A DNA stretch of 61,492 nt, filler included, from Sphacelaria rigidula (taxonomy: Eukaryota): NCBI GenBank assembly GCA_964200075.2. It is 10 parts of 10 records of this genome, joined end to end, with 100 filler letters (N's around TTAATTAATTAA, not from the genome) between each part and the next. Parts side by side here need not be neighbours in the genome. Positions count along the whole stretch, not along the records: positions 43,117 to 49,175 come from CAXNAA020022515.1; 9 more parts are not named here. One strand, written 5' to 3'. Both the position numbers and the translations under genes were made by a program. Positions 24,331 to 55,284 of the stretch are shown here, one piece after another. Position 1 is the stretch's first letter. Each line of letters opens with the position of its first letter. A model generated the notes under the pieces. The model was not told the origin of the DNA. It saw only the letters and a program-made list of their open reading frames with translations, and did not search any database.

Positions 24331-26213
24331 ACAAATAATTATTGCACAAACAGAAACACCAACACCTCCACCAACTAGGAGAACGGCAGCAGCGGCGGCG
24401 GCAGAGGAACAGCGACAAATAACAACGATGGATTAATGTTAATATAATAGCAACCAAGTCGATGTCAAGCTTGGTACAACCTGTGACGCTAGCCAGCGCT
24501 AGAATGACAGCGTCAATATGCTTGTTCGAGGGACTCCCCNNNNNNNNNNNNNNNNNNNNNNNNNNNNNNNNNNNNNNNNNNNNTTAATTAATTAANNNNN
24601 NNNNNNNNNNNNNNNNNNNNNNNNNNNNNNNNNNNNNNNAATTGAAGGCATTTTACTGATACCTGAAAACTGATTATTGCCCTTAACTCATGAAAAAAAA
24701 ACAAAAAACCCTTTCGCACCGAGGTAATGGTCTTTTTTGTGCCCTATTCATTGTCAGTACCAAATCTCAGGGTCCACCTCTGAATGTGTAGAAGAGCATG
24801 AGCCTAACGAAAACCGGGTCGGTAGAAATTCGGAACAATATTTCGCAGGCCACTCACCGGCCCACGTTTGGTTTTCGTGTATTGAAATTTTGTGTGGGCG
24901 CTCTCTAAGGCATAATTAACAGAAAAGAGTAGGTCAGGTTGTTTAACATGTATTTTCTTCACTGGTTTAGGGCGTTCTACTATGGTAAAGACCATTTCTT
25001 CACGGAAACGCCCTAATCTCTATGAAAAATATGAAAAAATGAAACAATGAAATAAACAAAATGAAGGCCCATTTTGTTTTCTTTATTCGGCACTTTTATG
25101 TGGTTCTCCACACCAAAATTCGTCACCATCCGCTGAATGCATCGGTCGGGAGTTTCATAGAGATTTTAGTACTTGCGCTATCTCCCTTAGGTATAGGAAT
25201 GACTAGACATGGGGTTTAATCAACGAGAAAATATGGGCTCAAACTTTTGAGCAGATAGGCATCTTCCCCTTGATTAGACGGCTAGTGCGATATGCGGATC
25301 ACGACCCAACTCGTCTGTGTCGATGAGATATTGCTTTGAGAGCTTAAATCCCTTTTATGGCTGGCCCAGCTCGTACGGAATTGACGGTCCGTAGCCGGTA
25401 GACACTGATACGTCCTACTTTTTGAACGAGTTCACTTGAGTAACTTCATTATCCTACATTTCGACGTGTATCATTTACCCATTCGTCTCTTGTCTCCTGG
25501 TTATGGTGAGTCTATGTGTGCTGAGTTTGTCCAGCATTCAGCAAGGCACTGACCTTAGCTTCTCGCACGAAGAGGCAGAAATGCCAGTGTGTGTTACTTT
25601 TGTTCTCATAACCGGTGTTTTCCAGGTGCCTTCTCCTCAGTACGTCGTCTTTCTGAGCTATCGCTTGGTGGATGGGTCGACATACAGTATTCTCGGTTGG
25701 ATTGCCGACTCATTCATGAAAAGATCACCTTCGGTTGTTTACCCCGTTTTTAGTAGTGTAAGTTCACGTGCTTGTTCGATCAGTTTCCATACCCGTGTGT
25801 TGCACGAATGCCAACGGATTTTTCCGAGACTGAAAGTTTGTAGCCATCCTTTGCCGAGGAACCTGCTTGCCTTCCGAGGCCCGGAGTCCTAGGCCAGTTG
25901 TGTCAATACGCACTACTACATCGGCAGCACGTAATAACGCAGATATAATCAGCCTGTGATTACCATTTTCCCTCAAAGTACTGTATGTCGCGGTTGACGA
26001 TCACTTGACAACCTTGACGGCTCTTGAACTGTTGAATATTCTCAGGCAGCATCAGGAGGAACTGCCTGCTCCTCTTGTTCGGTCATGTGACAGTGAGACT
26101 GCTAGAATCAGCCGAAGTTGTATGCGCTAGAGCCTCTCGCTTCACCAGAGTAGGGGTGATACGAGCTTGGCAGTGCCCCCCGGGAGGGCTGCTTGAAATG
26201 GCCATCAGATGGC

Positions 26214-28433
26214 ATGACGGGCGTCGACGTCGTGGAGGTATCGGCGAACAGGGTTGGGATGACCGATGAAGTGAGCAAGGATTACGGCAACGAGTGTTTC
26301 TTCAAGAAGCCATCGTACGGTGTAGTGGGAAGTCGGATGGCGGAGTTCTGTGCCGATCACGCCAGGTCCGGGATGGTGGATGTGAGGATCAAGAAGTACG
26401 GCAACGAGGACTGCACCAAACTCCCATCGTTCGGTGTAGCGGGAAGTCGGAAGGCGCAGTTCTGTGTTGATCACGCCAGGCTGGGAATGGTGAATGTTGT
26501 GAGCAAGAGGTGCGGCAACGAGCGCTGCACCAAACTTCCGTCGTACGGTGTAGCGGGAAGTCGGAACTCGGAGTTCTGTGCCGACCACGCGAGAGTGGGG
26601 ATGGTGGATGTGAAGAGCAAGAAGTGCGGCAAAGAGGGCTGCACCAAACTCCCATCGTACGGTGTGGCGGGAAGTCGGAAGGCGGAGTTCTGTGCCGACC
26701 ACGCCAGGTCCGGAATGGTCGATGTGAGGAGCAAGAAGTGCGGCAGTGAGGGCTGCACCAAAAAACCATCGCATGGCGTAGCAGGGAATCGGAAGGCGGA
26801 GTTCTGTGCCGGCCACGCCAGGTCCGGAATGGTCGATGTGAGGAGCAAGAAGTGCGGCAACGAGCGCTGCACCAAAACACCATCGTATGGTGTAGCGGGA
26901 GGTCGGAAGGCGGAGTTCTGTGCCGGGCACGCCAGCCTGGGAATGGTAAATGTAGTGAGCAAGAAGTGCGGCAACGAGGGCTGCTCCAAACGACCATCGT
27001 ACGGTGTAGCGGGAAGTCGGTTGGCGGAGTTCTGTGCCGGGCACGCCAGGTCCGGAATGCTCGATGTGAAGAGCAAGAGGTGCGGCAACGAGGGCTGCTT
27101 CATACACCCATCGTACGGTGTAGCGGGAAGTCGGAAGGCGGAGTTCTGTACCGACCACGCCAGGTCCGGAATGGTCGATGTGAGGAACAAGAAGTGCGGA
27201 GACGAGGGCTGCTCCAAACACCCATCGTACGGTGTAGCAGGGAATCGGAAGGCGGAGTTCTGTGCCGGCCACGCCAGGTCCGGAATGATCGATGTGAGGA
27301 GCAAGAAGTGCGGCAACGAGCGCTGCACCAAACTCCCATTGTTCGGTGTAGCGGGTAGTCGGTTGGCGGAGTTCTGTGCCGACCACGCCAGGTCCGGAAT
27401 GGTGGATGTGAAGAGCAAGAAGTGCGGCAACGAGGGCTGCTCCAAACAACCATCGTACGGTGTAGCGGGAAGTCGGAAGGCGGAGTTCTGTGCCGACCAC
27501 GCCAGGTCCGGAATGGTCGATGTGGCGAGCAAGAGGTGCGGCCACGAGGGTTGCTCCAAAAAAGCATCTTATGGTGTAGCAGGGAATCGGAAGGCGGAAT
27601 TCTGTGCCGGCCACGCCAGGTCCGGAATGATCGATGTGAGGAGCAAGAAGTGCGGCAACGAGCGCTGCACCAAAAAACCATCGTATGGTGTAGCGGGAAG
27701 TCGGAAGTCGGAGTTTTGTGCCGACCACGCCAGGTCCGGAATGATGGATGTGAGGAGCAAGAAGTGCGGCAACGAGCGCTGCTCCAAAAAACCATCGTAC
27801 GGTGTAGCGGGAAGTCGGAAGGCGGGGTTCTGTGCCGATCGCGCCAGGGCGGGGGTGGCCAAGATCGTGAGTCACAAGTACGGTAACGAGGGTTGCTCGA
27901 ATCTCGAACAAGGTAACGTATGCGAACATGGCTTATCTCGAGCAACCAAAAGAGAGCAACATGGAGACATGTACGATGAACATTTCACGCAGGGCGGACA
28001 ACCCAAGCATTGCACGAGTCACGGGGGTGGTGCGTGTGATGTCGGGTTCGGCTCTGTTTTGCTCGTAACTTCCGAGCTCAATGGTTCGCAGCCTGCCAAG
28101 GGCGCCGAAAGAGGACCTCTGGGGATTAGGCCGCACGCGAGGGTGAAATCGGAAGAGTTTGCTCCCCTTCAGAGTCTCAAGAAGAGCCTGGGGAGGAGGG
28201 TTGGCGTGGTCACTTACTCTGATGAAGGTGGAGGCAGCAGGACTGGCAGTATTTCCAGCGATAGTTGTGATGGAAGAATGAAGAAGCGGATTCGCAAGAC
28301 GCCATCGATCGTTCGTGAACACTTCCGGCCAGAAGATGCTCGTGTGGATGCTTCTTCAGTGGTGTTCCAAGGAAAAGAGGAAGGCTTGAAGATGGAGCTG
28401 GCAGTTTCGGCTACGTTGCCCGACCTTGCGTAA
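26214..28433 (+). CDS. Intronless EsV-1-7 cysteine-rich repeat protein (739 aa; 14 full 38-aa C-C-C-H repeats plus a partial one)
   Basis: Consensus KKCGNEGCxKxPSYGVAGSRKAEFCADHARSGMVDVRS matches the EsV-1-7 repeat; 114-bp nucleotide period 26277-27872; first in-frame ATG 26214; basic patch RMKKRIRK in the tail. Confidence 0.93.
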   Translation: MTGVDVVEVSANRVGMTDEVSKDYGNECFFKKPSYGVVGSRMAEFCADHARSGMVDVRIKKYGNEDCTKLPSFGVAGSRKAQFCVDHARLGMVNVVSKRCGNERCTKLPSYGVAGSRNSEFCADHARVGMVDVKSKKCGKEGCTKLPSYGVAGSRKAEFCADHARSGMVDVRSKKCGSEGCTKKPSHGVAGNRKAEFCAGHARSGMVDVRSKKCGNERCTKTPSYGVAGGRKAEFCAGHASLGMVNVVSKKCGNEGCSKRPSYGVAGSRLAEFCAGHARSGMLDVKSKRCGNEGCFIHPSYGVAGSRKAEFCTDHARSGMVDVRNKKCGDEGCSKHPSYGVAGNRKAEFCAGHARSGMIDVRSKKCGNERCTKLPLFGVAGSRLAEFCADHARSGMVDVKSKKCGNEGCSKQPSYGVAGSRKAEFCADHARSGMVDVASKRCGHEGCSKKASYGVAGNRKAEFCAGHARSGMIDVRSKKCGNERCTKKPSYGVAGSRKSEFCADHARSGMMDVRSKKCGNERCSKKPSYGVAGSRKAGFCADRARAGVAKIVSHKYGNEGCSNLEQGNVCEHGLSRATKREQHGDMYDEHFTQGGQPKHCTSHGGGACDVGFGSVLLVTSELNGSQPAKGAERGPLGIRPHARVKSEEFAPLQSLKKSLGRRVGVVTYSDEGGGSRTGSISSDSCDGRMKKRIRKTPSIVREHFRPEDARVDASSVVFQGKEEGLKMELAVSATLPDLA

Positions 28434-39277: not shown

Positions 39278-39674
39278 TGTTCGTGATAGCTGCTGTAGTA
39301 TCGACTCATCTGGTTGGACGAATCGAATAACGGAACTGTCGGTCTATAAGTTGCTGAGCTACCACATATCTGAGTATTGCGAAGAACGTTCGCGGTCCTC
39401 TCTGTTGGTTATGTAGGAATACCCTTTGTGGATACTGCATTAGTCCGAGCATGGTATTTGTGGTGCGGGGAACAACCCGAGGTTTTTGTGGTACGTAAGG
39501 AAGTGCGTTGGTCCGAGTTCCATTGCTGGAACCATGTGGTTTCTAGATTTTCTGGGATGTAGATTACGCGAGCTCGCCTACCTTGCTCATTCCACTTTCC
39601 CGACTTGTCTCTGCGGACCAAGGTCTCAAAACTACAATACATCTTTTTCTCTAGAAGTCACGAGCTTACCAACA
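39278..39674 (+). mobile_element. Copia LTR (397 bp), shared by upstream pol and downstream gag
   Basis: Begins TGTTCGTGA right after the PPT; ends TTACCAACA (imperfect terminal inverted repeat); gag-like ATG at 39762. Confidence 0.8.
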
Positions 39675-42600
39675 CGCTATAGCGTGTTGGTTGACTGCTG
39701 CTTTGTCCCCCTTGGACTGTGCATGAGACTGTAGAGGGAGGCTTGATCAACCTGCCTCATCATGGCTGAACCGGGGAACAACGATCCTGCGGTTGTCTCA
39801 GCTGCGGGTGGATCGCAGGAAGTTGGTGAGAGGGTTTGTTTCATAGAGAAACAGTTGCCTCAACCTATGACTCTAGTATCGACGCTAGTTGAGCAACAGG
39901 GAGGGAGAGTGGAGTTCTCTGGTTTTGTAGTTGCCGCGCCGGGAGGCAGCGGGCAAGAGACTAGTATGCATCTTTCTGACGATGCTACTGGTGGGACCGC
40001 GGGAAGTACGGGCGGCGATGCCCAAGTCTTAGGCGTGTCCAGCATGTGGGATGGGAGTAGCAGTCTTGCAGACTCAGGATTGAATCCTCATGTATCTGCT
40101 TCAAATCGGTCCACTGTTCCTGCAGTAAACTTTGGTTCGATCGGGACTGTAGGTGGGGCTTTAGGACAGTCCTCTGTTCCGCCCGCTCCGTCTCTGTCGA
40201 GTAAGTGGAAACACTCTGATACCTGGGGCTGACATTTCTGACACAGGAGAGAAGTTGGGTAGGGGTCCTTTTAAAGTTCCCAATGCTCCTGTTTTTGACG
40301 GTAACGACGTGTCGTATCCTTCATGGTCGCAGAAGTTTCTGTTGAGTGCCCGACACAACAATCTGTATGAGGCGTTTGTTTCTGAAGCTGATATTTCGAT
40401 TGTAGACATTGATTTCGACTTACCGACATGATACTGTTGTTGAAATTTTATACAGCCAGTAATCCAGCGGCATGTTTCGTTCTGGGTTTTGGCTGTAGCA
40501 AATTAGCGGTGCAATAGATTCCGGTTAATAAAGTGCCCCAGTAATGACCCTGGGTGCAGTTATCGTTTCATGTGGATCCTTGATGGTAAATATATTGAAG
40601 TCAAGAAAGATGACAGAGAAGTGTGCATCCTGATGCTTGAGGGACTGTCGCACGAGTACAAGACTTTGCGTGAAACTCTTGTGGTGTTCTGTCCGAATGA
40701 CCCATAGTTCATAGAGAGAAGGGTCACTTGAGGAAGGACTGCCTGGCTCGTGTGATCGCTGATCCTACCCAGACCGGAAAATCCGAGGATGCCGAGGATG
40801 AGAACGGTAAGAGGTCTAGTTTGGTGTTGCTCTCTCAAACCAGCTTGAACAACTCGAGTGATCTGACAGGTCTGGTAGCATTTTATGATGCTATGCTGCG
40901 TGAGTGCTTGTTCAGTGATGATGCTGTTCGTGAATTCTCGTCTCTTGAAAGGAAGGATAGGTGTGTCGAAGATTGGTATGCAGGCACGGATACTGCTTTC
41001 CACATGACTGATTCTCTCTCTTGTATGAAGGATGTAAAGCCTTGCCACAAGAACGTAAAAGGGATTGGTGGCGTGACTTGTGAGATAGCACTCCACACGT
41101 GGAAAATTAGCACCCTGTAGGACGAGCTGCACAGGGTTTTCCACAGTCTGTGTGAACCCCCCTGCGTAGCATTTGCAAACCCTTGTACCTATAATAGCAT
41201 TTTGAATAGCGTTTTTGTCGAAACCCTGCAAGCAACCCTGTGGAGAGGCCTTCCCAATTTGGAAAATTCCAAATTATTTTGGTACACAATCTGTAGATTT
41301 ATTTTTTTGGAATAACTTCTCTTGCTGTCCGAGATAAATTTCATTTTGGCCTGTTCAAATCGGGCAAAATGGAATTTATCTCGGACAGCAGGAGAAGCTA
41401 TTCAAAAGAGATCCTTTTTTCGTTCAAGTTATTTGGGCAAAAAAGAGATATATTCCGAACAGCTTTTTCTGCTGCGCAAATCCTATGCACACTAGCAGAT
41501 TTGGAATTAGAACAGCAGAAGAAGCTCAAAATAAATCTTCACGTTGCCCTCCAACTCATCTGGAAATTGGGCAAAAATAGATTTTTTGCGAACAGCGTCG
41601 GCTGGGCATATTCCGCATACTGCACCGTTATCAGCGTATGGAATCCGACAAGCAGAACAAAAATGTTGGAAGTAATTTATCCTTTTGTCCCCCGGTCCAT
41701 GCACACGGGCTAAAGGATGCATAACTCTCAACAGCTTTTGCTGAATCGAGATCCGACACACTGATTACGATCGAGTGTATGTCCACACGCCTACGAGTTC
41801 AGATACGACGCTTCCACTTAAGACGTGGATATTGGGATGATGGTATATACCTCGCATATGATTAGACATTGCTTTTGAAAACCCCGTGGTCCGCAGTATA
41901 CCAAAATCACTCAACCGCGTATGCTTTTGTTTAGAGAGGTTTTTGTTTGATAGTCATTAGAAGCATAAAATAGTACCGTTTCAAACAACCAATCAGGTAG
42001 CTCAATAGGCAACATGATGCACTATCGAGCACGAAGTCGCGAGTTCGATTCTTACCCTGCCACTTCTCGACAGTTAACTTCTTCCAGTACCATGCCCATG
42101 CTGCATGGAGTATATTGTATGCGTGCTATAAAGTCTGCACAGCATATCAACAGCGATGAATTCTACACGGAGTGACGAAACCCTGTGAAGCGCCCTGTTG
42201 TGTGGCACAAAATAACACCCTACAGTCAAATCCCCGCGAAAAACCCTGCACAGTTTCCCTGAACCCTGTGAAGCATCCTGTGGGGCGCAAAATAAACAAA
42301 CTACAGCCAGATCTCCGCGAGAAACACTGCACAGTTTCCCTGAATCCTGTAGACGTGTTCCACAGGGTGCTATTTGTCCACGCGTGTCTCTGGAACACTG
42401 GAGTTGGTGTCTATGACTACTGACGGCGAATCTTCCGTAGAGCTGGAGAACGTGTTGTACTCTCCCAACTTAGGGTATCACCTCTTTTCCCCCAGCGCAG
42501 AGTTTGATGCAAGTCATGGAATGGGCTTGGTGGTCCTGATGGTGTCATGACTGCTTACGACGGACATGTTACTTTTCAGCACTTGGATGGCATGCTAATT

Positions 42601-44099: not shown

Positions 44100-47000
44100 G
44101 TATAGACCACCACGCATTGGTACGTGAATCCGCAGGAGGTGTATGTGACCTTACAATGTAGGGCGAAACTACAGTACTCGAGGGAGTCGAAACTACAGTA
44201 TTCGAGCGATCAGACTTACTAACGCTGTACGGCCGAAGACGCGTCGCTATCTGTGATGAAATCCCCGATTTTCGATCAAATCGTAATCTGCCACTGAACA
44301 AATGCATTCCAGTGGAATTCAAAGCGATACCCTGCCGCTCCTGCATGTGGTGAAGGGAGAAAATATTGAACTTGATACCCTCCACGACGTGGACATCGGT
44401 CAACTGTATTGGGAAGTCACTTGGAGGGCTGAGACATCCAAAGATCTCATGTGAAATGTCAAGTTCAAGTTACCTACTGCCTTCACAGGAAGTCTGGTCC
44501 CGTTACCCATCACGAAATATTCCATGCCCTGAGGAGGGGGTCGTAAATCAAAAACGTCATCTACTCTACCCGTGACATGAACCGTAGTGCCTGTATCCGC
44601 GAGCCATTCTTCTGCATTATCATCCTTACCAGATACAGTACCACCACCCAGTACATCATACCTACGTGGATCGTAATCACCCAGTCGTAAACGAGACTCG
44701 CCTGCGGGCATGGTACGCGCCATGAATAGCCGTGGATGTTCCCCAGTATGCGTATCGGGAGAGGCAGCAGATGTAGCTGGAGGGGCTCGCGGCTCTTGTT
44801 GTTGTTGCTGTTGGTCGTGATGTGGATCTTCGGTCTGGTATTGTTGTTGGTGATGACTGTTGTCCGGGTGAGGATAGTAGTAAGAGTAATGGCCCTGGCC
44901 CGGCGGGTGATATTGTTGGGAATGTTGCTGTCGGGGCTGTGTTCGATGTGACGGTGGCTCATGATTCTGCACGTAGTGGGTATATCTAGCATCACTGAAG
45001 TCGTCTCTGCCCGGTGGAGTGAAGTGTTCGTCAGTAGTCAGTGGCTCACTATACTGTACAAGGTTTGCACGCGAGAGAGACACCCTGGAATGTCGGTAGT
45101 CGTTGAAGTGGCGAGGATCGTCGGTGTGATGGTTACGTTGGGGGTGGTGGTCCCGTGATGCGGGGCACGCTGGTCTCGGTGAGGATATCGATTGCCATGT
45201 CGGCTATCAACATGACTGCGCCCGTCGCCTCGTGTGTGACAGATTGTGCAATTGGGAATATTGCATGATGAGGGTTGAGAGGTTGAGTTGGGGTTGTGGT
45301 CGTTGTGTGGGTCATGTGGGGATATAAAATGTGCTCGGGAATAAGGCCTTGGCGACGGGTCATGGTCATAGTGGTGGTGTGACGTCGAATTCCCAGTTCG
45401 GTCAGATCCACACTCCCGGCAGTGGTGGTTGCCCCCCCTGCCTCCGCGTCGCCTCCCCGATATGTCACTGTGGGATACATCTCGAGCTATAGCGGACAAG
45501 GCATGATTAGTCGGAGAGTCTATCCTGCTGCTCGACAGTACGTGCAGTTTTCACCGTTCGGTGAAGGGTCTCAGTATCGATATCTGGCATGGCGAGGAGA
45601 ATTCCTCTCTGGATCTGATACTCCGATGACAGCCTGCGTGCGTAATGTCTGTTTGTATCAGACTTCGAAATTACATGACCAAAATGGTCTCTTCTGGCGG
45701 ATCAGATTCGCCCTATTTAGAAATACCAAAGGCCTTCCGCCCGGGGGCATCTGCAGGCATGACCATTCGTGCTCAAGACGTGCCTTCTCAGTGGTAGGCG
45801 AAACGGTATAATACTGAACAAAATAATCTCAAGACTCACTAGGCGAACCAAGCATCGCAATTTTTTCTACCATTACGGGCGCGGTGATCTTTTCGAGGAG
45901 TATATCGTGGGCACGTTGAGCTTCCTGTACTGCTCTAAACCCATGCTGCCTTATCAACTCTTCTTCTCTTTCATGGAACACTCGAATGGGGTCTTCAACA
46001 AACAGAGCATCATAGCATTTCCCGGCACGAAAATGTCCGATCATCTGAACTTGAAACACACGAAACTTGGATTCCAGATTTCCCCCTGCTATTACTGTAC
46101 CGTCCCATGGGTGGATGCTCGTATTGTTGCGTACTCTTACAAAGTTGGGTGGGGCATGTTGCCCTCCCGTGATGTTGTCGCTTCGGAACTCTGGAAAAAA
46201 ACGTGGATTGTTCTCCTGCTCGCGGTGTGCCGTACCCACCGTGGGGTTACCTTGTGCGCCTGCGCCCAAATGCATACTCCTCTCTTTCGTACTCTGCAAC
46301 AGCATCGCGCTTTGCGGCCTCGATAAGCTCTGCCTGTTTTTCTTCCATGACTCGTAGTTTTTCGGTCTGTTCTACCTCCATACGCCTGAGTTTTCCCGTC
46401 AACTCTTCATTACTGTACTTCATGTTAGTCATGGATCGACTTTTATTATCTACTTCTGTTACTTGTTGAATCGTTTGTCTCAAACTCTCCTTGACCTCTC
46501 ACTTGTTGACTCCCTTCCTCGTTGACTCAAGCGCAATCAAATGCTGCTCTTTTGTTCGAACTGTAACGAACGCTAACTGCGTAACTCTTTTTGAAGGCTC
46601 AAGCGCTAACTAGTGCTGCTGAATTTTGTCTCTGACCATGACAAACGCTAATTGCGTAACTCTCTTTGACGGCTCAAGCGCTATGAAGTGCTGCTGAATT
46701 TTGCCTGACCGTAACAAACGCTGACTGCGTGACTCTCTTTGAAGGCTCAAGCGCTAACTAGTGCTGCTGTATCTTGCCTCGAGCTGGCTCAAGCGCTATC
46801 AAGTGCTGTTGAATCTTGCCTCGAGCTGGCTCAAGCGCTATCAAGTGCTGCTCAATATTGCTCAAACTCGCTCTCACTTCCCTGCTACTCCGGCTGCTGT
46901 ATACCCGTTTCAAACTCGCTAGCGTATTTGATGAAGGGATGATCCCGCAGAGGACGCGCTCTGGACAGGGGAACGTGTATACCTTCTTCTTGTATTAACC

Positions 47001-47316
47001 TCTCGTAACCTTCACTCACCACACATCAACCGTGCACGCTCCACCCGAGCTGCTCTCTCCAACCCAAAACGCACTGACCAAAAATGCACACCAAAACACA
47101 ACTGGCTACGGTAGGGAGGACCGCATATGGGTTCCCCCAATTGGTCCCACACCCAGTCATGACATAATCCGTCAACGTACGCGATCCGATATCCATGATG
47201 CTTCGTCAATCTGCACCGCATGTACCCGAATTAATCCAATCACACGTGCACTATTGTTCAGCTCGACGATCGTCAATTAAGGTGTATCAAGACAAGAACA
47301 ACATGACATAACGACA
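44100..47316 (-). mobile_element. Second, different Copia family: putative LTR 47316-46925, leader with tandem repeats, gag, protease (truncated)
   Basis: Coiled-coil gag start (46483-46247), IHPWDG..KFRVFQVQMIGHF, protease WLADTGTTVHVTG..VMGNGTRLPVKAVGNLNL, VEGIKFNIFSL; GAGGGG precedes TGTCG at 47316; LTR limits inferred. Confidence 0.82.
46563..46853. repeat. Tandem array in the Copia leader: three ~74-bp units then two 42-bp units
   Basis: GGCTCAAGCGCTA..(A/T)AGTGCTG occurs five times. Confidence 0.9.
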
Positions 47317-49104
47317 CCCCTCATCGGGGGGTTTCACCCCCCACCCCCCACTTCTCTGGACCGTCGTCATTGCCGTACTATTTGGGCTTCACTGGTCTCC
47401 CGTCTAATCGCAATGCTACGACCTTTCTTCAACCAGATGAGAGATATGAAAAGCATGTAAGTAAAAAAGCAGCTTTGATTGGTCCACACGTTGCGCCGCT
47501 GCGACACAGACAGCTGCTACCGGCAATAAACGAGGATACAGCAACTCCGTGCTGGCTCACTTTGTTTGTCCCAACCTGCACGCACCCGCCTGGCGTGTCT
47601 CCCCCGATCACAGCACCCGACTATAATTGAAGTACCAGAGAAGACTCAACAGACAGCTGTACAGCCGTTATGTGATGATTGTTTCAACCTTCCTTTGTTC
47701 CGACAGGATCTCGATCCCACCCCAATTCTGTGCAGCCCGAAACACGGCATGCAGCAGTACGCACTCTCCAGTGCACATCGCACCGTAATCGTCGTAGAGT
47801 GTTTAGATGCCCAACAGCACAGCGAGAACTGCAGTATAGAAATGATGGGTTTGGGGAGCGCCTTATTCCTTTGACTCGAGACGAAACAGCCAACACGCCA
47901 TGAACGTTTTAACGGTGTGTAGAGAGCACTGCGTGCCGACAACATTGTTTTGCACAGAGACGAACGGAATTACAGTATAAAGCAACTCGGGCACTCCCAG
48001 CGGAGATCAAACTGACTCCACAAAGGCCTGAAGACACCACAGCGCAGCGACACCCACGGCACACAAGACAGAGCATGAGTGTGTTTGTGCTGCAGCACAG
48101 TGGTAAAGGACATGTCCCATGCGATAGTTATTTCCCTGATTTCAGGTGGGTCCTCGATTTTTGCCCAGCGGCGATTTTCAAACGCTTGGCCATAATCGCG
48201 CTTCGCGCGAAAATTTTTCGATTCACTTTGAGTGACCCTTATCTGTGGGAGGTGAGCCCTTTTCGAGGGCTGTTCACCAGATGGTCGGAAAAAATTGTTG
48301 ACACGAATAATGAGGTGCCGACAACAGACGTCGGCATAACTGTCCAACCATATGATTGTGAAACTAATGGTTGGCCGTCTTTCGGATCTTGTGGTCGATG
48401 CTGTTGGCAACAGGTCGATCAATATGCAGGCACGACCGTACCACGATGGTAGTCCACTGAGTTGGTTCAGAACCAAAACGAAGATAAACTATAGCGACTA
48501 CTTTGATGGTACAGTACACCGCACCGTGGCAGGCTCCCTGCATTCGCTAGTAGTGCGGCTCAGCCCATGCTGTTCTGCTTGATATGTCTTGCACACGCAC
48601 AAAATACCATGCATACGCACCAGGTTTTTCACCGTGACCATAAAGCCACCGCAGTTTGAAAACACCACTCAGGCCGTACATGGTTTGAGACATGAGATAC
48701 AACCCTGGGTACGGTCAGCGAATTAGGAATGTGCAACGAGATGCAAATGTAAATTTCTCTGGACGCGGCACCCGTGTGTGGGCAGTCGCACCGTAGACGT
48801 CGATGTACTGTGGCCGAACGCGACATTCGCGGGCAGCGAAATCGCCTCACTTCTGTGGTGCTGACGCACAGGCGGGCTATGGATGGCGAAATCATTGAAG
48901 AAACAAAGGGCAAATGAAAGTCAAATTCAAACCCAGGGGAAAAATCGAAAATAAATAAAAGGCAACGGAGACACAAAGAGAAACACTCGCCTAGATGGCG
49001 ACGGAGACACCCCAAAGGACACTCGACTAGATATCCAAGCCAAGTAGGACGAGGCCAAACAGGAAGTGGGGTCGATAGAGCAATACATAAAACATTTTCC
49101 CCAG

Positions 49105-54179: not shown

Positions 54180-55284
54180 CTGTTGCAGGTTAAGGGCAAC
54201 GCCCGGTTAAGGGCAACTTTTCGCTTAAGGGCAAGCGGTCCGCATTAAGGGCAAGCGCCCCTGACTATGGGGAAGCGCCCCTGACTATGGGGAAGCGCTC
54301 CTGGGTAAGGGGAAGCGCCCCTGACTATGGGGAAGCGCACCTGGGTAAGGGGAAGCACACCTGGGTAGGGGGAAGCGCACCTGGGTAGGGGGGAGCGCAC
54401 CTAAATACGGGCAAGCGCCTCTGATTATTGGCGTCTGCCCCTAGCGACGGAGAAGCGATACACGTATCGTCAACATATTCCCGAATCAGCCGAAGAATGC
54501 CAAACTGTCTAGGGCGTGCTAAGGACCCACGATACGTGTGTCTCTGGCTCGTGGGCACACGATACAGGTGTCTCTCGCTTGTGGGCACGCGATACCGGTT
54601 AGGGTTAGGGTTAGGGTATCCTGTATCCTTAGTGTAATGCGTGAGAGGACCGCGTGCTTACAGGACCGCGTCGTAGTTCAAAACACCTCAGGATCGACGT
54701 TTTTCAAAACCAATCCGGCCAGTCCCTGCAGGTACTACGCCCCTGACCATAACCCCGACACTAACCCTGACCCTGATCCTGACCCTAACCCTAACCCTAA
54801 CCCTAACCCTAACCCTAACCATAGGGATATTCAAATTCCGATGCGATCCTCTAAGCACGCGGTCCTCTCACGCATTACACTTAGCACGCCCTAGACAGTT
54901 TGGCATTCTTCGGCTGATTCGGGAATATGATGACGATACGTGTATCGCTTCTCCGTCGCTAGGGGCATATGCCAATATTCAGGGGCGCTTGCCCGTATCC
55001 AGATGCCCTCCCCCCGACCCAGGTGCGCTTCCCCTTCCCCGGGTGCGCTTCCCCCTACCCAGGTGCGCTTCCCCCTACCCAGGTGCGCTTCCCCATAGTC
55101 AGGGGCGCTTCCCCTTACCCAGGTGCGCTTCCCCATAGTCAGGGGCGCTTGCCCCTAATCCGGGCCGTTCCCCCCTAACCAGGGGCGCTTCCCCCCTAAC
55201 CAGGAGTGCTTGCCTTTAATCCGGACCGCTTGCCCTTAAGCGAAAAGTTGCCCTTAACCGGGCGTTGCCCTTAACCTGCAACAG
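54180..55284. mobile_element. ~1.1-kb foldback element with 20-bp subterminal arrays and internal telomeric repeats
   Basis: CTGTTGCAGGTTAAGGGCAACGCCCGGTTAAGGGCAAC... mirrored at the right end; 20-bp unit GGGGAAGCGC(C/A)CCTG(ACTAT/GGTAA) in both arms; (TTAGGG)3 at 54599-54616 and (CCCTAA)6 at 54783-54818. Confidence 0.9.

Follow-up and report, generated by a model that had tools for sequence, protein, structure and literature searches.

The window analyzed here is a stretch of 61,492 nt from Sphacelaria rigidula, made up of ten contigs of the 244-Mb assembly joined by N spacers. On contig C22515 it carries a copy of a Copia retrotransposon family, referred to here as family B; the family-A motif at 39675 with which it is compared lies on another contig, C22514 (Table 1). 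Family B has the Copia order gag-protease-integrase-RT-RNase H with an RVT_2-type RT (loci L033 to L036; PF07727 match on C13041). The window copy holds gag and protease only and is nearest to L031, a gag-protease-only derivative (91% over 3232 bp). Two such derivatives of family B, each ~5 kb long with gag and protease only, were observed (L031 2653-7837 and L039 1865-6825). The leader repeats vary in copy number, and each contains TAGCG, the complement of the first bases of the core described below.

Table 1. Positions of the family-B and family-A features in the window
Feature	Position	Strand	Basis or remark
5' LTR of Copia family B, 355 bp, noncanonical TA...TA ends	46925..47279	minus	30 loci; solo LTR; loose ends
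P1, self-complementary core CGCTAGCG	46917..46924	minus	PBS position; LTR end adjoins without spacer
Right arm AGTTTGA	46910..46916	minus	Able to pair with U5 end across internal loop, at chance level
GTTTGAAAC, weak quasi-palindrome at the P2 place of families A, C, and D	46907..46915	minus	Putative homology, from position only
Leader, tandem repeats of 42 nt and 73-75 nt	46526..46869	minus	Repeat analysis
gag region with stops and frameshifts	44930..46432	minus	tblastn with family-B proteins; ATG at 46432
Protease region; copy breaks off at ~44115, without INT, RT, or 3' LTR	44115..44732	minus	tblastn with family-B proteins
Family-A LTR, 397 bp, TG...CA, common to two tandem internal regions	39278..39674	plus	On other contig than family-B site
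Family-A P1, CGCTATAGCG	39675..39684	plus	Junction alignment
TGTTGGT, copy-specific block, reverse complement of LTR end, in place of usual CATCAGT	39685..39691	plus	

A sequence-only reading of the window had inferred an LTR of 392 bp for family B. Comparison of copies gave 355 bp (47279 to 46925): copies start at 47279, several of them behind a polypurine tract, and aligned contigs have loose ends at 47279/47280. The solo LTR L023 is flanked by the 5-bp target duplication ACGTT. The TG near 47316 is part of a neighboring repeat and not of the family-B LTR; the likeness in LTR length that had been drawn between the two families (392 versus 397 bp) is therefore void. Positions 47280-47400 of the window belong to a high-copy repeat that hosts the family-B element, with a depth far above that of the LTR. 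The inner LTR boundary proposed at 46925 held, with 3 of 30 loci (L013, L015, and L023) losing the match right after TCAAATA and the other 27 continuing into the core.

The LTR ends differ among families, being TA...TA in B and B2, TG...TA in C and D, and TG...CA in A and E. Target duplications of 5 bp were exact in L023, L136, and L167, carried one mismatch in L102, L172, and L175, and were absent from L139. LTRs ending in TA are common in this genome (47279-46925; L174, L170, L139, L167, and L131), with normal 5-bp duplications where checked; L131, a member of the tRNA-site group described below, has TG...TA ends.

Palindromic cores across a Copia lineage

The 22-nt word TCAAATA-CGCTAGCG-AGTTTGA is present on the minus strand (46931-46910), upstream of leader and gag, and the junction has no TGG primer-binding site (PBS), both as originally described. 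The 8-nt core of this word, P1, was exact in 19 of 26 tallied family-B copies and one base off in the remaining 7 (locus L028, which has an exact core, lies outside both 26-copy family-B tallies). Minority letters were rarer in the core (7/208; 3.4%) than over 170 surrounding columns (383/4420; 8.7%), and the core pattern was found in 40 rows, versus 2 for the control. The background rate is such that 8-base palindromes begin at 0.5% of window positions. The two bases 3' of the core were the most variable (AG 11, AT 9, GG 2, GT 2, GA 1, and AA 1; 26 copies).

The arms of the 22-nt word, which had been thought to compensate for each other between families A and B, behaved differently. Within family B, the left arm changed from TCAAATA to TCAATTA or CCAATTA in 6/26 copies, with no mirrored change in the right arm. 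The family-A arm used for the comparison, TGTT, proved to be a minority variant (3/18 loci), the usual word after the core being CATCAG (12/18). The 22-nt hairpin folded no better than shuffled sequences (monomer z of 0.03), and U5-leader pairing in family B reached P values of 0.18 to 0.44. Compensatory change was found in the core itself and in a second palindrome, which the first reading had not seen. A core palindrome, often followed by a second, describes the feature better than a 22-nt hairpin does.

For the phylogeny, 60 of 150 listed RVT_2 places were taken, picked for room for LTRs, followed by a search for LTR pairs. The RT tree was a quick tree of 81 rows with no outgroup, leaving out L101 and L164 (short) and six loci that have no RT. 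It splits the Copia rows into two groups (SH-aLRT 100), with family E on a long branch, and sets the palindrome group apart from a tRNA-site group. Upstream of RT, the motif GGTTATGAGC is present in 20 of 44 rows of one RT group, whereas none of the 21 own-genome rows of the P1 group has it. In families A, B, B2, C, D, and E, P1 directly follows the LTR, where the sister group has GGTTATGAGC. P1 reads CGCTAGCG in B, B2, and the D-like L203, CACTAGTG in C and D, and CGCTATAGCG in A. The first two variants differ at paired positions 2/7, and the family-A core has TA inserted at its center. The cores of family E are imperfect (CGTTATAATG or CGTTATATCG; 2 verified copies). L204 represents an additional family; the search of L169 gave no core.

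The second palindrome, P2, is 10 nt long and lies 2-3 nt beyond P1 in families C (CAACCGGTTG), D (CAATCGATTG), and A (CAGTCGACTG). B2 has no P2, and B has only a weak one, GTTTGAAAC, with a computed duplex energy of -4.6 kcal/mol versus -11 to -16 kcal/mol for P2. Among A, C, and D, P2 shows two double changes, one of them at positions 4/7; these would be loop bases in a hairpin, and pairing therefore points to a second strand. With the varying positions left free, the P1+P2 pattern gave 151 matches versus 39 for the control. P2 was perfect in 73 among the 100 matches listed (hand count; copies not independent), versus a chance expectation of 1 in 16. Because copies are related, the independent evidence consists of three paired substitutions and one symmetric insertion. 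Variants of P2 among the 100 matches listed were 8 of wobble type and 7 of mismatch type (hand count), and no G-U bias was seen among these matches. The 8-nt core has the same CTAG at its center in every verified family, so that this CTAG could be a conserved tetraloop and not paired.

L199 (P2 CAGCCGGCTG) was considered as a fourth P2 family and set aside, as it has neither protein nor DNA likeness to the Copia loci; three P2 variants, not four, are therefore verified. The same string in L211, a single metagenome pattern match, likewise lacks such likeness. Loose-pattern matches upstream of RT in rows of the half-tRNA group (L127, L145, L149, L150, and L171) were nonpalindromic and not tied to LTR ends.

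The named relatives of the family-B RT are proteins of Ectocarpus, Pylaiella, and Ascophyllum. An algal-type Copia contig in a bacterial MAG (L213), retrieved by RT alone (59% to B), has the order PPT, LTR ending in CA, CGCTAGCG directly after it, leader, and gag, its LTR end being inferred from one copy. The central proposal of the sequence-only reading, that a brown-algal Copia group has a conserved palindrome in place of a tRNA site at the PBS position, is thus borne out by the RT tree, the Ectocarpus, Pylaiella, and Ascophyllum relatives, and a second genome; the reasons given for it, arm compensation and LTR length, fail. Judged from these comparisons of sequence, the palindromic site is real and lineage-wide.

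L212, L213, and L214 are algal-type Copia contigs in two bacterial MAGs and most likely represent host DNA that was binned with the bacteria. No core was seen in L212, which breaks off within its LTR or ahead of it, or in L214, which has a 3' LTR only. The RT search found nothing in 34 stretches of metagenome contigs, and RT alignment found nothing in 23 of viral contigs; the core pattern had no match in viral contigs or in two MAGs, and the protein atlas returned generic RVT_2 clusters only. Elsewhere, six contigs (C4003, C11382, C16954, C18008, C25587, and C27044) share GAACA-CGCTAGCG-TGTT, an extended palindrome that looks fixed and is possibly a further family. Single extended palindromes at C8628:7892-7925, C5701, C11799, and C13802, with cores CGTTAACG, CGCTATAGCG, CGCTAGCG, and CATTAACG, respectively, are candidates. 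Tandem elements with one common LTR are frequent in both Copia groups (L002, L008, L009, L010, L041, L054, L213, L130, and L141) and may be assembly artifacts; as a trait of the palindrome group they were discarded, L130 and L141 of the tRNA group showing the same arrangement.

Models of priming

A plant survey names three primer types, namely, a whole tRNA, half a tRNA, and the 5' end of the transcript itself (PMC6317226). No family of the palindrome group has TGG after the LTR. Among 58 tRNA sequences, many of them organellar and the nuclear set incomplete and without an initiator tRNA, none gave a Watson-Crick match above chance. One family-B variant matched 13 nt, with G-U pairs, of a tRNA in an organelle-like gene cluster (shuffle fraction of 0.035, 1 of 18 tests). 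The sister-group site GGTTATGAGC matches a Met tRNA over 9 nt, the last of them at position 40, and by sequence match the pattern in this other Copia group is that of a half-tRNA-Met site. Within the tRNA set, L084/L085 and L089 hold a tRNA with anticodon CTC whose body is near-identical to the Lys(CTT) genes, probably a mutated copy. For the transcript's own 5' end, the LTR complement is 11 nt in Tf1 (PMC7175516), and 10 nt has served as the criterion for a self-priming complement (PMC6317226); in each of 10 algal junctions, the longest complement was 4-6 nt, or 5-9 nt with G-U pairs, and thus below 10 nt.

Isolated 8-nt cores form no hairpin (0 kcal/mol), and their duplexes have predicted energies of -8 to -13 kcal/mol. 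The energy of the dimer minus that of two monomers was -17.2 kcal/mol in B and B2 (reached by 0-1 of 100 shuffles) and -12 to -13 kcal/mol in A, C, D, and E (reached by 3-9 of 100 shuffles). Given cores that form stable duplexes and no hairpin, and the gain of 17.2 kcal/mol on dimerization in B and B2, pairing between two packaged RNAs is favored.

We put at about an even chance the reading that P1 is a tRNA-free priming site of this Copia group, working by self-pairing in trans. Two RNAs packaged in one particle would pair P1 to P1, with P2 or U5-leader pairing possibly helping the contact. A cut immediately 3' of P1 would then sever one strand; the RNase H of the element is a plausible agent, by analogy with Tf1, and both this cut and the priming are inferred. 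The resulting R-U5-P1 piece would have its 3' end on the first base past the partner's LTR and could prime minus-strand strong-stop DNA. Plus-strand synthesis would later copy the primer, restoring P1 and serving the second strand transfer. If that synthesis ran on beyond P1, the complement of the LTR end would be written behind P1, and under such a run-on model this complement is therefore expected behind the core.

Blocks of this kind occur in family A, where TGTT or TGTTGG stands behind P1 in 3/18 loci, with no two-step intermediates. The three loci do not form one clade (AU P = 1.1e-5 for leader plus gag and 0.068 for 122 nt of U5). In L043 of the same family, a single T is inserted behind P1. 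Left-side conversion was seen in none of the 18 family-A junctions, too few to decide. TA stands behind the core in 2 family-B loci, and the run-on block expected in family C (TAT) was found in 0/48. From their sequence, the family-A changes possibly fit run-on copying of the primer; repair of a quasi-palindrome by the host, or recombination of one variant, could also have produced them, and single changes can account for the TA in the two family-B loci.

Other readings of the site have to be weighed against self-pairing in trans. P1 and P2 may be dimerization or packaging signals like PAL1/PAL2 of Ty1, whose RNA dimerization is driven by palindromes (PMC6844567), with the primer being a host tRNA fragment or another small RNA outside the tested set. 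That set is incomplete, and a primer ending in CGCUAGUG could presumably pair with both 8-nt cores with one G-U each. Such a primer cannot serve the 10-nt cores, however, and with a host primer the site would be expected to return to the primer's exact complement, CACTAGCG, seen in 2 among the 100 matches listed. Also against it, no PBS begins with TGG, and tRNA sites are easy to recognize in this genome, as the sister group shows. We consider this reading unlikely. Somewhat less likely again is snap-back priming in cis, in which the RNA is cut after P1 and its 3' end folds (2-3-bp stem, CUAG or UAUA loop) and primes its own U5. Its appeal lies in the invariant center of the 8-nt core, in monomer folds of A, B, B2, C, and E that have P1 at the tip of a hairpin, and in the same run-on footprint that it would leave. 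Nevertheless, the lack of a hairpin in isolated 8-nt cores and the covariation of P2 at would-be loop positions speak against it, and a cut template would be expected to lose P1 for the second strand transfer unless the uncut partner were used.

The symmetry might instead act at the level of DNA or protein, as the site of a dimeric protein or as an aid to second strand transfer or end formation, with priming by a protein or nonspecific RNA. Central symmetry would suit a dimer-binding site too, and the LTR ends are unusual (TA), but the position is exactly that of a PBS, and paired changes between families would be unexpected of a protein site; we judge this reading improbable. Self-priming of the Tf1/TAR type, in which the first transcript bases anneal to the site and are released by cleavage to act as primer, is a known tRNA-free route proposed also for plant Copia elements (TAR; PMC6317226). 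It is very improbable here, given the short LTR complements in all 10 junctions, and it leaves the symmetry of the site without a reason. Equally hard to credit is the original version, a 22-nt hairpin whose arms covary between two families. U5-leader stems of different sequence can be drawn in B, B2, and L213, and in a 12-nt window such stems were better than expected in B2 (P = 0.014) and E (P = 0.006); however, the other 8 of 10 junctions gave P values of 0.08-0.92 in that window, all 10 exceeded 0.1 in a 20-nt window, and the family-A arm and the monomer fold argue against it as described above.

Relation to known retrotransposons

The design is not without precedent. In fungal GalEa Copia elements, a palindromic Conserved Hairpin Site (CHS) replaces the PBS, and its authors had no model to offer for it (PMC5445492). 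GalEa shares with the algal group a Copia identity, the lack of a tRNA PBS, and a C...G palindrome directly after the LTR (CTGATCAG-T or CTAATTAG-T in GalEa), as well as a second conserved word downstream and, possibly, a larger junction hairpin that includes an internal loop (PMC5445492). The algal elements differ in core sequence, in core length (8 or 10 nt), and in their brown-algal host. Their second word lies 2-3 nt on and is a palindrome of its own, whereas the CHSeq2 of GalEa is a near inverse copy of the first, 12-41 nt on, with an A/A mismatch (PMC5445492); read by eye, the algal junctions show no such inverse complement of the first word.

The protein motifs also differ. Integrase spacing is D(59)D in L035 and L167 and D(63)D in L180, in place of the D(49-55)D(35)E of GalEa. 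The algal RNase H motifs are YADADY, YADANY, and YCDADY, and the xDAS/xDGS motif, present in 5/6 metazoan and 6/6 fungal GalEa rows (PMC5445492), is absent. The protease motif, DTGA in L033, L035, L139, L167, and L180 and DTGT in L172, agrees with the DTG(C/A) of GalEa, a weakly diagnostic match. Because integrase spacing and RNase H motif fail and the second inverse copy is absent, we do not file the algal elements as GalEa; their likeness to GalEa in layout is probably convergent.

Other systems share single aspects of the proposed mechanism. Tf1/sushi elements and plant TAR elements (Houba and Osr-1) take the primer from their own RNA, and in Tf1 RNase H has been shown to cut an RNA duplex (PMC7175516, PMC6317226). 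The PAL1/PAL2 words of Ty1, self-complementary and near the 5' end, link two genomic RNAs as proposed here; they come in addition to a tRNA PBS, whereas the algal palindrome takes the PBS position (PMC6844567). Copia elements primed by half-tRNA-Met (Osser and Bryco; PMC6317226) are of the type of this genome's other Copia group, a separate RT group that has no palindrome. Among brown algae, Copia-1_Ec32 and Copia-1_ES of Ectocarpus have LTRs of 332-353 bp starting with TA and a 5-bp duplication (PMC12477816), and the family-B RT shares 65-69% identity with Ectocarpus proteins. Their LTR ends are given as TA-CA, not TA-TA, and the accessible part of that source does not mention a PBS (PMC12477816). 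Compared by description only, they are possibly the counterpart of family B. The literature searched, which covered few subscription papers or Repbase reports and included the accessible parts of PMC12477816, PMC2806351, and PMC6934838, contained no description of such a site in brown algae or stramenopiles.

Fungal GalEa fits none of the three primer types, and a second, apparently unrelated Copia group has the same layout. More tentatively than for the algal site itself, and somewhat short of even in our estimate, the shared layout suggests that P1 dimer-priming may be a further way to start LTR reverse transcription, arisen independently in brown-algal Copia and fungal GalEa and leaving a run-on trace in the genome. 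The natural compensatory variants and the possible genomic footprint make the question posed by GalEa-type sites testable with short RNAs. For annotation, finders based on a PBS and on TG...CA ends will miss or mis-trim many brown-algal Copia elements.

Two further features of the window were observed. Positions 54225-55194 hold a large inverted repeat of 20-nt tandem units with arms of ~300 nt, 89% complementary, which may be foldback or MITE-like, and positions 26160-28433 hold an open frame of 757 codons with 114-nt tandem repeats (38 residues each).
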